Shown here piece after piece: positions 1,659-5,845 of a stretch of 64,000 nt of DNA (positions within the stretch are counted from its first letter, which is position 1; each line of letters begins with the position of its first letter). Location: assembly GCA_910589105.1 (NCBI GenBank), contig CAJUST010000011.1, positions 1-64,000 of the forward strand, written 5' to 3'. Position numbers and translations under genes: made by a program. This stretch comes from an uncultured Lachnospiraceae bacterium. Its GTDB lineage: Bacteria; Bacillota; Clostridia; Lachnospirales; Lachnospiraceae. Under the pieces are notes generated by a model, which was not told the origin of the DNA, did no database searches, and was given only the letters and a program-made list of their open reading frames with translations.

Positions 1659-1774
1659 AAGGAGAGCATATTATGCGATTGGCATTGGAAAAAGCATCAG
1701 ATTCTTTATTTAATCTCCTGTGTAAAAGAAGGGATAATGATTACAAGCGTTGGCAGAACAGAAAGGGGTACATT

Positions 1775-4700
1775 ATGAAATTAAAAAAAACGTTTAGAAA
1801 GTTAATAACGGCATTATTAGCAATTACAATGGTTTTAACATTGTTACCGGCAAATACAGAAGCTGCAAAAAGGCGAAATGAGCCAAAAAAGATTGTATTA
1901 AATAAAAGTAAGCTGATGATGGTAAAAGGAGAATCCAGAACTTTAAAAGTAAAAAAAACAATTCCATCTAAGGCATCTAAAACTGTAACATGGAGCAGTT
2001 CAAACAAAAAAGTTGCGACTGTCACTTCAAAAGGGAAAGTGAAAGCGAAAAGGGCCGGAACTGTTAAAATTATTGCAAAGTCGAAACATAATTCGAAAAT
2101 TAAAGCTGTATGTAAAATTACAATATATAATAAAACAAAAAAAATCAGCTTGCTTTGCAACAGTGTTTATCAGTTGAATGCAGGTCAGTCGGTAAATTTG
2201 AAAGCAAAAGTTACAAGTCCTGCAAAAAAAATACAGCCTATTACTTGGAAATCTAATAATTCTTCCATAGCGACAGTTACAAAATCAGGAAATGTCAGAG
2301 CTGTTAGGGAAGGCGCGGCTATCATGACAGGTACTTCCGGGGGAAAAAAGGTCACAGTCAAGATTATAGTCACAAAAGAGGCAAATCCTATTATGTATTA
2401 TACAGTTACATTTGTTTCAAATGCTTCTGATGTGGGGAAAATGCCTCCTTCGCAAAAAATTCTTGCAGGCAGGCGTGTTTCAAAACCGGTTGATCCGATA
2501 AGAAACGGCTATGTGTTTGGAGGATGGCATACTGATAAAGCGCTTAAAAAGGTTTATAATTTTTCAAAAGCAGTTACAGGAAATCTAACGCTTTATGCAA
2601 AATGGGTGAGGCAGACACAGATTTCTTCCGATCCGGATGCATGTTATCAGGTTACATTTGACTGTAACGACGGTTCAAAAAATGTATATGAGATACAGAA
2701 AGTTGCAGAAGGCAAGTCTGTGGCAGCGCCAGCTGACCCCGAAAGAGATATGTATGGGTTTACTGGCTGGTATATGGAGTCTGCGGCTGTAACAAAATAT
2801 GATTTTGGTTCTCCAGTTAAAGGGGATATGGTGTTGTATGCCGGATGGGGTTCGCCGGACGGCAGTACAGATTCACTTTATTCTGCGACAAATAAGGAAG
2901 AAACGATTTACTCCATTTCAGGTGTAGAGATGAATGGAAATACCCTACAGGCAACGATCAATACAAATTCAGCCTGCGCATTGGTTGTAGAGTTTTATGA
3001 GGATACAATCGGTATAGATGGCAGCTGGGAACAAGAAGCCGTAAATGCCTGTCTCCAGAAAGAACCAATTACAAGAGTTGCCACGCAGACGCCAGATTAT
3101 GGAGAGATGATTTGTGTTTCTATACCTGTGGAAACTGCTTTAACCGATTACTATCTGATTCGCGCAAGGCTCGTGGAATTAGATGGGGAAGGTATAGAAA
3201 AAAAACTGTGTGAATCATTTTTATGTATCGATTATTCTGCGAAATATGCCCGGTTTGAAGAAAAGACAGTATATGATTTTCCGGAAGAAAAGGTTGTGAA
3301 TTTTGATGAAAGCACAGAAAACAATTTTGGCGTATTTAATGAAAATGTGAAGATAATTAATTCTGGCAACATGACAAATAGGTTAGTTGTAGAAGATATT
3401 TTCATTGAAGATGAATTTGAAAGCAACATGTTAGATCATACATATACGTTTTATAACCCTGACAGTGATGTAAGGGGACTGCGATCCGGCGATCCGGTTT
3501 ATGTTACTGGCACTGCGTATCTGTTTAAGATTAAGGAGGTTATTAATAATTCGGATGGGTTCATCACATTTACAACCGCATCAGATGTAATGCTAACTGA
3601 TTTTTATGATGTTTTGAAAACAGATATGAAATCTGGGGACAGTGGCATTCAGCCAAGGATTGATATTATAGACGTCGAAACCAACTTTTCCAGTCCGACG
3701 ATTGGCGGAGATTTTTCTCATGAGCTAATAGAAGACACTTTAAAAATTTCTGGGACGCTTAGTGGATCTGTACAATTCAGCATACAAATATCTTATGATG
3801 CCAAACTTTTTGCGAAAGATTATTTTGAATGTAACATTACAACATTGCTTGAGGGAAAACTTGGCATAAAGGGGGAGGTGTCTAAAGATAATGATGGAAA
3901 TGATAATAATGCGCGCAGGGCAGACAAAACAGAGATTCCATTGCCAAGGGTTTCAGTTCCAACGCCGGTGCCGGGGCTTGAAGCGTCGATAAATCCTAAA
4001 ATTCCAATAGAATGGGAAGCTAGCGGGAGTATATCATTGGATTATACTTATTCACAGAAGTCGGGTTTTCAATACAATTCCTATTCTGGAAGAGAAGACA
4101 TCAAAGAAAAAACACAAACAGTGAGTTTAATGGCGGAGGGTAAGGCAGAAATAAAGATTGGTCCAAAACTTTCTACGGCGATCCAGTTCTGTAAAAATGT
4201 AGTTAAAGTGGAATTTAGCGGCCATTCTGGCGTAAAAATGACTGCTGAAGTAGAAATGGGCAGTGATGATGTGTTAAATCATGCAGAGTCCAAACATGCG
4301 TGTGATTTGTGTGTTTCTGGTGAGATAAAATGGTTTGCAGATTTAAACTTAAAAATGACGTTTGCAATTTGCGATGATGCTTTAAAGGGAGATATATTTA
4401 ATATTAAATTATTTGAACTTGAAGGATATGTCAATTTCCTTCCTGAATACCCCGGAATATGTTTTTGGTCACTTTCTAATAGCAGAGACAGTGTATACAG
4501 AGGAGAGAAAAAATATGGGTTTGGCCCTTGTAAAAATAAATTTTACAAAACAACTATTCAAGTCTTAAATGACAAGGACGAGACTCTTACAGGCATCCCT
4601 GTGACAATTAAAAGGGAAGATGGCAATACGGCATATGAAAAGGCAGGCAATTCGACATACGTGGAATATCTGTATGACGGGATTTATATAGCTAATGCAA

Positions 4701-5845
4701 ATATAGATGGGAAGCGTGTAAGCAAATCGTTTGTGACGAAAGGCAATGTGCAGACAGTCATATTGTCTCCGTTATCAGAGAATGGAGAATTGTATGGTCA
4801 TATTAAAGATTCTGAAACTGGAAACAATATCAAGGGGGTAAGCGTTAAAATTTCCAAAGACGATATGGGAGTCACTGCAATGGAAACAGATGAATTAGGT
4901 AATTTCTCATGTTCCCTTCCAAGTGGGACATTTTTGATAGAAATAACAAAGGACGGATATCTTCCTTTTTCTGCTTACGAAAGAATAGAAGATGGCGAAA
5001 TGACATATATGCAGGAAATTGAATTGATTTCGGGAGAAGGAAAAGGGGGATTTAGGGGAATTATTACAAATGCAGTTACAGGAAGGCCTATTGAAGATGT
5101 TAATCTTCAGCTTCGCTCTGGCTGGAATAATACAGAAGGTGAAATTATTAAGGAATTAAAAACGGATTCTGATGGGGAGTTCCGGTTTGGCGCGAAAAAA
5201 GCATTTGGCGTTATATTCGGGATTCCCTGTGGGAATTATACGATTACGGCAAGTAAAGAGGAGTATTTGGCAACGAGCTTTAATATTATTGTATGGCCGG
5301 GGGAAGATACGGATAATCCGGAACAGAATGGAACCATGTCACCTGTAATGGCAGACGATACATACCGGATAGTTTTAACATGGGGTGAAAATCCAAGTGA
5401 TCTTGATTCTCATGTCGTTGGAAGATTTTCAGATGGAGAGGATTTTCATGTATATTATGAAAATATGTGGGAATATGATTATGAGTCGGATTTAGAAGTC
5501 TGCAATCTTGATCTGGATGATATAACAGGTTATGGACCCGAAACAATTACATTGAATGTAAATACCGATGCCCCATACTATTATTACGTTTATCATTATG
5601 ATGGAAGCGGTACGCTTTCGACATCTGGAGCGCAGATTAAAGTTTATCATGGAAATGATCCGGTGCGTACATTTCATGTGCCCACGGGCTTTGGGCAAGA
5701 AGATTACTGGAATGTATTTGCCATTGTAGACGGAAAAATTATTTCCAAAAATACGTTGACGTTTTTTAGTGATTTAACATATGCGGATTCCAGACGAGTA
5801 TCTGCGCCAGATACTTCTAAGGAGGATAGAGCCCTTAAAAATTAG
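1775..5845 (+). CDS. Giant secreted/cell-surface multi-domain protein with Big_2 Ig-like domains, Listeria-Bacteroides (Flg_new) repeats, CarboxypepD_reg-like beta-sandwich repeats and a C-terminal domain of unknown function
   Basis: The ATG at 1775 has an RBS (aaagggg) and is followed by a signal peptide, MKLKKTFRKLITALLAITMVLTLLPANTEA. The ATG at 1673 (RBS aaggagag) is an alternative start that would make it a signal-anchor protein. Lys-rich Big_2-type segments are present (e.g. VTWSSSNKKVATVTSKGKVKAKRAGTVKIIAKS). YTVTFVSNA...NGYVFGGWHTD...LYAKW and YQVTFDCNDG...GFTGWY look like Listeria-Bacteroides repeats. ETLTGIPVTIKREDGNTAYEKAG... and ETGNNIKGVSVKISKDDMGV..GNFSCSLPSGTFLIEITKDGY look like CarboxypepD_reg-type repeats. 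Confidence 0.6.
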   Translation: MKLKKTFRKLITALLAITMVLTLLPANTEAAKRRNEPKKIVLNKSKLMMVKGESRTLKVKKTIPSKASKTVTWSSSNKKVATVTSKGKVKAKRAGTVKIIAKSKHNSKIKAVCKITIYNKTKKISLLCNSVYQLNAGQSVNLKAKVTSPAKKIQPITWKSNNSSIATVTKSGNVRAVREGAAIMTGTSGGKKVTVKIIVTKEANPIMYYTVTFVSNASDVGKMPPSQKILAGRRVSKPVDPIRNGYVFGGWHTDKALKKVYNFSKAVTGNLTLYAKWVRQTQISSDPDACYQVTFDCNDGSKNVYEIQKVAEGKSVAAPADPERDMYGFTGWYMESAAVTKYDFGSPVKGDMVLYAGWGSPDGSTDSLYSATNKEETIYSISGVEMNGNTLQATINTNSACALVVEFYEDTIGIDGSWEQEAVNACLQKEPITRVATQTPDYGEMICVSIPVETALTDYYLIRARLVELDGEGIEKKLCESFLCIDYSAKYARFEEKTVYDFPEEKVVNFDESTENNFGVFNENVKIINSGNMTNRLVVEDIFIEDEFESNMLDHTYTFYNPDSDVRGLRSGDPVYVTGTAYLFKIKEVINNSDGFITFTTASDVMLTDFYDVLKTDMKSGDSGIQPRIDIIDVETNFSSPTIGGDFSHELIEDTLKISGTLSGSVQFSIQISYDAKLFAKDYFECNITTLLEGKLGIKGEVSKDNDGNDNNARRADKTEIPLPRVSVPTPVPGLEASINPKIPIEWEASGSISLDYTYSQKSGFQYNSYSGREDIKEKTQTVSLMAEGKAEIKIGPKLSTAIQFCKNVVKVEFSGHSGVKMTAEVEMGSDDVLNHAESKHACDLCVSGEIKWFADLNLKMTFAICDDALKGDIFNIKLFELEGYVNFLPEYPGICFWSLSNSRDSVYRGEKKYGFGPCKNKFYKTTIQVLNDKDETLTGIPVTIKREDGNTAYEKAGNSTYVEYLYDGIYIANANIDGKRVSKSFVTKGNVQTVILSPLSENGELYGHIKDSETGNNIKGVSVKISKDDMGVTAMETDELGNFSCSLPSGTFLIEITKDGYLPFSAYERIEDGEMTYMQEIELISGEGKGGFRGIITNAVTGRPIEDVNLQLRSGWNNTEGEIIKELKTDSDGEFRFGAKKAFGVIFGIPCGNYTITASKEEYLATSFNIIVWPGEDTDNPEQNGTMSPVMADDTYRIVLTWGENPSDLDSHVVGRFSDGEDFHVYYENMWEYDYESDLEVCNLDLDDITGYGPETITLNVNTDAPYYYYVYHYDGSGTLSTSGAQIKVYHGNDPVRTFHVPTGFGQEDYWNVFAIVDGKIISKNTLTFFSDLTYADSRRVSAPDTSKEDRALKN

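Follow-up and report, generated by a model that had tools for sequence, protein, structure and literature searches.

The window analysed here is the whole of a stretch of 64,000 nucleotides (nt) from an uncultured Lachnospiraceae bacterium (assembly GCA_910589105.1, contig CAJUST010000011.1, positions 1 to 64,000 of the forward strand). Close to its left end, an open reading frame (ORF) of 1390 codons was confirmed at positions 1673-5845 (+), and this gene for a large, predicted surface protein is the subject of the present analysis. In public databases, the gene is found in a mouse-gut metagenome-assembled genome (MAG) labelled Eubacterium sp. Directly upstream and on the same strand lies the 3' part of a gene for a homolog of MVP, which gives a Pfam match to MVP_shoulder (E 2.6e-21) and a weak match to Vault_3. 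This upstream ORF extends beyond the left border of the window, so that only the last 551 codons (3-1658) of a full MVP homolog of 796 amino acids are contained, and its stop codon TAG (1656-1658) is located 14 nt before position 1673.

Start codon and domain architecture of the surface protein

Public gene callers take the ATG at 1673 as start codon, which results in a protein of 1390 amino acids (aa), and residues are numbered here from this methionine (Met1). The original prediction had proposed two plausible starts, at 1673 and 1775, each with a ribosome-binding site (RBS), and both in-frame ATG codons and both RBS were indeed found (Table 1). The 34-codon extension obtained with the upstream start has no counterpart in homologs, whose N-termini open at the signal peptide (MEIKKKLKKM..., MKFKRKCKKM..., MKKKTMRF...), and the extensions added by gene callers to the homologs P0004 and P0005 are unrelated in sequence. 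At the DNA level, similarity to the homolog in L006 (66% identical) spans from the RBS preceding ATG 1775 to the stop codon, with this RBS and ATG aligning with the RBS and ATG of the homolog, and none was detected upstream of about 1760, the stretch 1659-1760 having no counterpart in L006. In addition, the GC content of the window drops from about 0.45 to about 0.32 near position 1700. Because of the homolog N-termini, the limits of DNA similarity and this drop in GC content, ATG 1775 is most likely the ancestral and the functional start, and ATG 1673 is probably not ancestral. As ATG 1673 is preceded by a strong RBS, it may still be usable, and its use would merely lengthen the n-region of the signal peptide. 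The hydrophobic core and the cleavage site are the same with either start and for this reason it is unlikely that the choice between them changes the topology from a signal anchor to a cleaved signal peptide, as had been suggested.

The Sec-type signal peptide shows, by eye, a basic n-region, a hydrophobic core of typical length and, at positions -3 and -1, small residues, with predicted cleavage after Ala64 (between TEA and AK). The core has 15 residues, nowhere else in the protein does the Kyte-Doolittle mean exceed 1.6, and both the n/h/c pattern and the xEA/A site are conserved among homologs. A lipobox is absent from the signal peptide.

Table 1. Positions of the features of the surface-protein gene and its borders in the window.
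Feature	Position	Strand	Details
Upstream start ATG 1673	1660..1675	+	RBS AGGAG at 1660-1664, 8 nt before ATG
Favoured start ATG 1775	1762..1777	+	RBS AAAGGGG at 1762-1768, 6 nt before ATG
Sec-type signal peptide, aa 35-64	1775..1864	+	MKLKKTFRK / LITALLAITMVLTLL / PANTEA, followed by AK; read by eye
Polycationic Big_2 Ig-like pair, aa ~70-235	1880..2377	+	Pfam Big_2, two copies, E 1.2e-20
Two Flg_new (Listeria-Bacteroides / InlB B-type) repeats, aa 243-393	2399..2851	+	Pfam E 1e-34; TIGR02543
Core module, aa 401-955	2873..4537	+	Conserved, no match to a known domain
Motif H875-A-C877-D-L-C880	4295..4312	+	Family consensus SKHACxLCxxG
Cys953	4529..4531	+	Consensus GxCxNKxYRT; junction between core and first transthyretin-like domain
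Three transthyretin-like (CarboxypepD_reg / CnaB-like) beta-sandwiches, aa 956-1207	4538..5293	+	Proposed stalk
C-terminal DUF2135-like (YfaP-like) beta domain, aa 1220-1363	5330..5761	+	Motif YRIVLTWG..DLDSH...NLDxDDxxGYGPET
Stop codon TAG	5843..5845	+	Sequence
Terminator-like element	6031..6104	+	13-bp stem AAACCCATATTTC / GAAATATGGGTTT, long loop, then T-rich run

Downstream of the stop codon, the terminator-like hairpin was found as an inverted repeat and is present in the minimum-free-energy and centroid folds of the intergenic RNA; with its loop of 30 nt it had been overlooked by a simple terminator scan. An Rfam search of the window returned two tRNAs only and nothing near the gene. On the opposite strand, an ORF of 139 aa at 1741-2160 (-) encodes a very hydrophobic sequence rich in Phe and Leu. 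It mirrors the sense strand of the Big_2 pair with its many Lys codons and is almost certainly not a gene.

The co-occurrence of Big_2 Ig-like domains, Listeria-Bacteroides repeats and carboxypeptidase-regulatory-like sandwiches in one polypeptide, which had been proposed from the letters and translations, was recovered for all three domain types by hidden Markov models of Pfam, CarboxypepD_reg being matched in two stretches (E 1.3e-16). The named domains span only about 40% of the protein, and no Pfam match was obtained for aa 401-955 and aa 1220-1363. In the Pfam analysis SLH and CWB2 gave no match in this protein, and it possesses neither an LPXTG motif nor a C-terminal hydrophobic anchor nor a second hydrophobic segment, the C-terminus being hydrophilic (...SAPDTSKEDRALKN). 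In relatives an SLH, CWB2 or dockerin domain stands at the place of the Big_2 pair, and SLH is present in the homologs P0006, P0008, P0009, P0010, P0019, and P0020.

The region formed by the Big_2 pair (aa 65-235) consists of 21% lysine and has a net charge of +39 and an isoelectric point (pI) of 11.1, whereas the remainder of the protein is acidic. The earlier description of the protein as lysine-rich is therefore correct for the Big_2 pair but not for the protein as a whole, whose lysine content of 8.5% is ordinary and close to the 8.6% of the MVP ORF. In 9 of 9 homologs of the Big_2 type the pair is equally basic (pI 10.5-11.0, net charge +29 to +43) and the rest acidic (pI 4.3-4.5), and because the basic pair is kept in this way, lysine-richness is a conserved property of the protein and not a signature of transfer. 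From its charge and its location it seems plausible that the Big_2 pair binds the wall electrostatically.

The region between the Flg_new repeats and the transthyretin-like domains, called the core module here, comprises about 555 residues. Searches of Pfam (E up to 5-10), NCBIfam, and the sequences of the PDB, performed with single sequences and with profiles, returned no match to it. When an exhaustive HMMER profile search was carried out with aa 401-1010 against 1.84 billion representatives, at least 1,536 clusters (defined at 50% identity) were obtained with E<=1e-3 and 615 with E<=1e-30; this result supersedes a word-index search with the core alone, in which the recovery of one protein was an index artefact. 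The few named sources of core-bearing proteins are MAGs of Clostridiales or Clostridia and an SLH protein of Monoglobus pectinilyticus. The AlphaFold2 (AF2) model of aa 401-1037, calculated from an alignment of 58 sequences (pLDDT 82, pTM 0.72), displays a beta-sandwich (aa 414-518), a mixed alpha/beta domain (aa 541-653), and a long-strand domain (aa 676-935) whose amphipathic beta-strands are 16-34 residues long. With the core as query, Foldseek never reported a TM-score above 0.14 and gave a few low-probability matches to pore forms and beta-barrels. Among 104 sequences only V554, H875, C877, C880, and C953 are invariant, and the His and the two Cys residues of HxCxxC are invariant in the alignments of both 104 and 58 sequences, down to 23% identity, suggesting that HxCxxC...C might constitute a structural metal or disulfide site.

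In a sample of 41 core-bearing proteins, the Pfam partners of the core were CarboxypepD_reg (27), Flg_new (22), SLH (18), and LRR_5 (9), followed by CWB2, Lectin_C, and Big_2 (3 each) and by Dockerin and SH3_3 (1 each). Anchors are located N-terminally of the core and lectin, LRR, and SH3 domains C-terminally. The general layout of the family can thus be described from its sequences as signal peptide, wall anchor, Flg_new repeats, core, transthyretin-like stalk, and variable tip.

The motif at the C-terminus of the protein resembled DUF2135 and was tested against YfaP from E. coli, which is annotated with this domain. In hhalign, the family profile matched residues 142-246 of YfaP with a probability of 96.5% (E 8.4e-10, 35% identity over 101 columns), and because of this match the C-terminal domain is identified as a divergent member of DUF2135 (PF09906, YfaP-like); a direct match to a Pfam model (E up to 5-10) or to the PDB was not obtained. 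Both share the motif LxWxxxxxDLDxHV...LDxDxTxGYGPE. YfaP is a small periplasmic protein of a Gram-negative bacterium, encoded in an alpha-2-macroglobulin operon, whereas the DUF2135-like domain described here would tip a Gram-positive surface protein of 1,356 residues. Literature searches returned nothing on DUF2135 nor on this protein family.

Base composition and probable horizontal transfer

The gene has a GC content of 0.380, compared with a mean of 0.442 (standard deviation 0.033) over the 31 ORFs of the window, and a GC content at third codon positions (GC3) of 0.316, compared with a mean of 0.463 (standard deviation 0.045), which is the lowest value of all 31. To obtain an expected GC3, the amino-acid content of the gene was combined with the synonymous codon usage of the other 30 ORFs. 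After this correction, the observed value is 0.313 and the expected one 0.454, and the deficit of -0.140 corresponds to z = -11 in a binomial model and to z = -4.4 when compared with the spread of the other ORFs, the second most deviant of which differs by just -0.048. GC3 is low along the entire gene (0.22-0.40 in windows of 50 codons). The view that the gene is more AT-rich than its neighbours, formed initially by eye, was thus borne out by GC content and codon usage, and the bias goes beyond amino-acid effects. The fact that the gene encodes a surface protein does not explain it, because two other giant surface-protein genes of the window, one for an M60-like peptidase with dockerin and the other for a BspA-type LRR protein, have a normal GC3 of 0.43.

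A similar bias is encountered in relatives. In five of six genomes, the family gene is AT-richer than its neighbours, with GC3 values of 0.316 and 0.454, respectively, in L001 (the locus of the species of the window), 0.314 and 0.473 in L002, 0.296 and 0.465 in L006, 0.540 and 0.790 in L005, and 0.418 and 0.941 in L008. The only exception is L007, a low-GC genome in which gene (0.294) and neighbours (0.293) do not differ. In four host genomes with a background GC3 of 0.29-0.47, the homologs have a GC3 of about 0.30.

In some relatives the change of composition occurs within the gene itself. In L008, the locus of a genome with 69% GC, the ORF at 10001-14317 has a GC3 of 0.80-0.88 in codons 1-275 and of 0.22-0.40 from codon ~290 to codon 1438. 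The part with host composition corresponds to the signal peptide, the SLH domains and the first Flg_new repeat, and the ORF is AT-rich from there on, although both flanks have 70% GC; the same ORF is found in L009 and L010, the context being common to the three assemblies. With a step in GC3 from about 0.85 to about 0.30 in one ORF, it illustrates clearly how horizontal transfer can remodel a surface protein in nature. In L048 (802-5610), GC3 falls from about 0.7 to about 0.44 between the first and the second Flg_new repeat, and in L005 a similar but weaker intragenic step is present; no such step was detected in L047. In a neighbour-joining tree of the core, calculated without bootstrap, SLH-anchored and Big_2-anchored forms interleave. 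The AT bias of the family, the intragenic steps in L008, L048, and L005, and the interleaved anchors in the tree show that the AT-rich part travels from host to host and that, at the Flg_new repeats, it can be fused in frame to an anchor already present in the recipient. Since in the gene of the window the anchor, too, has a foreign composition, this gene was probably imported entire, and by its composition it looks as if it came from an organism of lower GC content. The suggestion that it represents acquired DNA is therefore supported by the corrected GC3, by the bias in five of six genomes and by the intragenic steps.

The gene belongs to the modular, horizontally exchanged surface proteins of Gram-positive bacteria, which are already a known class. 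Mosaic surface genes with horizontal exchange of cassettes include the S-layer cassette of C. difficile and the mosaics of pneumococcal choline-binding proteins. As in these, the outward part has been swapped and the wall anchor is native in the relatives with a GC3 step within the ORF (L008 and L048). Unlike in the known mosaics, transfer spans hosts that differ widely in GC content (34-69%), the point of junction is between Flg_new repeats, and the gene of the window is foreign in composition over its whole length. The results of most lasting use are the core family, which is large and unannotated, and the intragenic junctions that clearly mark transfer in relatives of the gene. Exchangeable surface proteins of this type are candidates for strain differences in adhesion and in phage or immune recognition in the gut microbiome.

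Proposed function, alternatives and the adjacent MVP gene

According to the explanation preferred here, which is considered fairly probable, the product of the gene is a surface protein that is secreted by a mouse-gut Clostridia bacterium and associates non-covalently with its wall. The complete AT-rich gene would have been acquired by horizontal transfer and inserted downstream of an unrelated MVP gene. The acquired unit would have run from the RBS to the stop codon, probably together with the terminator. Translation would begin at 1775 and the Sec signal peptide would be cut after TEA. The basic Big_2 pair would keep the protein on the anionic cell wall, replacing the SLH, CWB2 or dockerin domains of relatives in this role, and the two Flg_new repeats, the core and the three transthyretin-like sandwiches would push the DUF2135-like domain outwards. 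The core would probably hold a metal or disulfide staple formed by His and three Cys residues, and the C-terminal tip would be the likely ligand-binding end, a position at which relatives carry a C-type lectin, a BspA-type LRR or an SH3 domain. Because of this architecture and of the fusion partners, the function is most likely that of a non-covalently wall-associated adhesin or an S-layer-associated protein. More tentatively, the core might be an undescribed fold family and the payload of a surface-protein cassette that moves horizontally among gut Clostridia and is grafted in frame, time and again, onto the wall anchor in use in each recipient, with Flg_new repeats as recombination joints. 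In any case, the core represents a large extracellular family outside current domain libraries, occurring mostly in gut and fibre-degrading Clostridia, and it is now a target for structural and binding studies.

This arrangement can be compared with known surface proteins. Proteins of Clostridia anchored by SLH, CWB2 or dockerin domains, with NCBI names such as 'S-layer homology domain-containing' or 'InlB B-repeat-containing', have the same succession of signal peptide, N-terminal anchor, Flg_new repeats, beta-sandwich stalk, and distal domain, and relatives of these types carry the same core of about 555 residues; unlike them, the present protein has the polycationic Big_2 pair in the anchor position. 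With no SLH match in this copy, it is not an SLH-anchored protein itself. The CnaB-like sandwiches of pilins and of MSCRAMM/TIE adhesins (TIE from B. anthracis, 6fwv; SpaA; BcpA) ranked highest among the fold matches (Foldseek E 1e-13 to 1e-5), but the match is limited to the stalk domains (TM-scores below 0.1 for the whole model), and LPXTG as well as thioester or pilin domains (Pfam) are lacking here. A sortase-anchored LPXTG adhesin or pilin was therefore discarded as a candidate, the C-terminal LPXTG and the hydrophobic stretch being absent. Internalins of Listeria (InlB, InlH/InlC2) share the Flg_new or B-repeat (TIGR02543). Assignment as an internalin was also rejected, as there was no match to an LRR family and NF033188 scored 48.4 bits compared with a cutoff of 1,050.

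Several observations weigh against the acquisition of the gene as an independent unit or against its proposed function. The borders of the gene in the window showed neither an integrase or transposase gene nor a tRNA nor direct repeats, flanking repeats being not longer than expected by chance and the tRNAs being located only at 33.7 kb. All 20 contigs that were read for the species carry the gene, the next MVP relatives share no synteny with the locus, and an allele with an empty site was not found among them. For the core, there was no match in phages and a single one in a plasmid. As neither structure nor sequence relates the core to a protein of described function, the protein is assigned as an adhesin by its architecture only. 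Between the MVP gene and the surface-protein gene there is neither a terminator nor a convincing promoter, promoter matches being not above the expectation from shuffled sequences, and because of this the two genes are probably co-transcribed in this species. The gap of 14 nt and the strong RBS of ATG 1673 would also be compatible with translational coupling to MVP.

A second way to account for the AT-rich codons is that the gene is native and owes them to weak expression, relaxed selection or local mutational bias. The lack of flanking mobility genes and insertion scars, the fixation in the species, and the AT-richness of the intergenic region and of the 5' part of the next gene would all be in line with this idea. 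It is nevertheless quite improbable, considering the normal GC3 of the other very large surface genes in the window, the constancy of GC3 in relatives across hosts of different background, and the shifts inside single ORFs in L008 and L048, which expression level cannot explain. Other alternatives concern the function. If the protein were a structural S-layer component, or an S-layer-associated one, that self-assembles on the wall instead of binding ligands, it would fit that SLH is the commonest anchor partner of the core (18 of 41), that CWB2 occurs as well, and that archaeal SlaB is among the fold matches, though via generic sandwiches. This seems rather unlikely, as the lectin, LRR or SH3 domains at the tip of relatives suggest binding, this copy lacks SLH and CWB2, and it is a single, horizontally acquired, non-core gene. 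An unlikely option is that the core is an extracellular enzyme with His875 and Cys877, together with Cys880 and Cys953, as a catalytic or redox centre, for example of a cysteine peptidase, a transglutaminase-like or a thiol-disulfide enzyme. It would explain why these four residues and one Val are the sole invariant ones; against it, no match to a peptidase, transglutaminase or thioredoxin family or fold was obtained, the spacing HxCxxC...C is encountered more typically in structural metal sites, and in the AF2 model the residues are placed where a long strand begins and in the linker between two domains. Finally, the long strands of aa 676-935 in the AF2 model, with alternating polar and apolar residues, and Foldseek matches including MAC pore forms, pneumolysin, perforin-2, and TonB-dependent barrels might indicate a secreted toxin or pore-former whose beta-hairpins insert into a target membrane. 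These matches had probabilities of only 0.02-0.3 and TM-scores not exceeding 0.14, and most relatives possess wall anchors (SLH, CWB2, dockerin), as suits cell-bound proteins, which makes this idea very improbable. As no fold match was found, beta-pore-forming toxins of the aerolysin/ETX-MTX2 and MACPF/CDC types were rejected as candidates.

The original prediction had raised the possibility that the surface gene and its MVP neighbour are a co-inherited module, and a functional two-gene unit, for instance with the surface protein as the cargo or a partner of a vault-like particle, would agree with the distance of 14 nt, the same orientation, the RBS right after the MVP stop codon and the absence of a terminator between the genes. 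In addition, the gene order, including the adjacency to MVP, is identical in all 20 contigs read for the species. Upstream of the surface gene it reads TY-Chap1-like protein, TraG/TrwB-like ATPase, ClpP, two unknown proteins, CHAT, and MVP. Outside the species, the link vanishes. Within the flanks read, five homolog contexts (66, 51, 50, 47, and 38% identity) contained no MVP_shoulder gene, and when all proteins of L001 were compared by BLAST with 30 MVP loci of other genomes (40-71% identity), whose hosts are Lachnospiraceae, Oscillospiraceae, Riflebacteria, Spirochaetota, Myxococcales and others, MVP alone was found, meaning that neither the surface gene nor any of the partners from the TY-Chap1-like protein to CHAT was present; no neighbour of MVP was shared by more than 8 of the 30 loci. 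The closest MVP relatives (73-74%) are located in phage-like contigs (L044:1-13649 and L045:1-22442) without a surface gene, more than 6,600 MVP homologs were obtained in a word-index search compared with about 25 full-length relatives of the surface protein, GC3 differs between the MVP ORF (0.44) and the surface gene (0.32), and one product is cytoplasmic and the other secreted. The co-inherited module is consequently extremely unlikely, and because the link does not extend beyond the species, the adjacency to MVP is incidental. Of the two findings named beforehand as arguing against the original prediction, the occurrence of the gene without an MVP neighbour in relatives was observed, but a composition matching the background was not. 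A tempting but false lead is thereby removed, the bacterial vault-protein homolog having no conserved partner here.

Neighbouring genes and further observations

Regarding the MVP gene itself, public calls of its start differ, giving proteins of 544, 525, and 796 aa, and the one of 544 aa starts at the ATG at window position 24, inside the conserved protein. MVP homologs are stand-alone and widespread, being found also in MAGs of Vulcanimicrobiota and Bacilli (L011-L040). Preprints on bacterial and phage MVPs were found in the literature, and one of them reports MVPs in gut phages, in agreement with the phage-like contigs that harbor the closest relatives. L044 and L045 contain dozens of small ORFs on the same strand, and MVP is accompanied there by N6_N4 methyltransferases, PcfJ, PAPS reductase, DUF2828/DUF7788, RlaP, a CCA-adding/PolyA_pol enzyme, an RNA ligase, and Band_7. 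The hint of RNA repair in this neighbourhood may be relevant to the role of bacterial and phage MVPs.

The MVP gene closes a tight same-strand run (L001:938-9986), most of which lies beyond the left end of the window. The genes that precede MVP in it have products of 171 (TY-Chap1-like), 438 (TraG/TrwB-like ATPase), 197 (ClpP-like protease), 337 and 193 (unknown), and 886 aa (CHAT protease), and the run looks like a conflict or defence-type module. Upstream of this run, at L001:1-694, lies the gene of a BspA-type surface protein with LRR_5 and Big_2 domains, whose 3' end has a GC content of 0.35-0.37 and which may be another acquired gene. Next to one homolog of the surface protein, P0009, a transposase of the IS66 family is encoded about 600 nt downstream (L005:14548-15216), the sole mobility gene beside any family member.

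The next gene downstream in the window, 6151-7512 (+), shows sub-threshold matches to circularly permuted ATP-grasp type 2 and to TupA-like ATP-grasp, and its first ~500 nt have a low GC content (0.31-0.40) like the intergenic region. The ORF at 12362-14872 (+), which follows an MMPL transporter gene and encodes 836 aa without Pfam match, is the most GC-rich of the window (0.49; 0.55-0.56 in 1-kb bins of L001) and is strongly purine-skewed (AT skew 0.24-0.25). At 34044-39275 (+), a protein of 1743 aa with dockerin, fn3, M60-like (enhancin/mucinase-type) peptidase, and F5/8 type C domains is encoded. It is overlapped by an ORF of 411 aa at 39190-40425 (+) with fn3 and GH85_C-like domains and 14.8% lysine, and the overlap could reflect a frameshift or two genes. 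A giant BspA-type surface protein with LRR_5 and Big_2 domains is encoded at 55816-61173 (-) and is the one whose near-normal GC3 of 0.43 was considered above.

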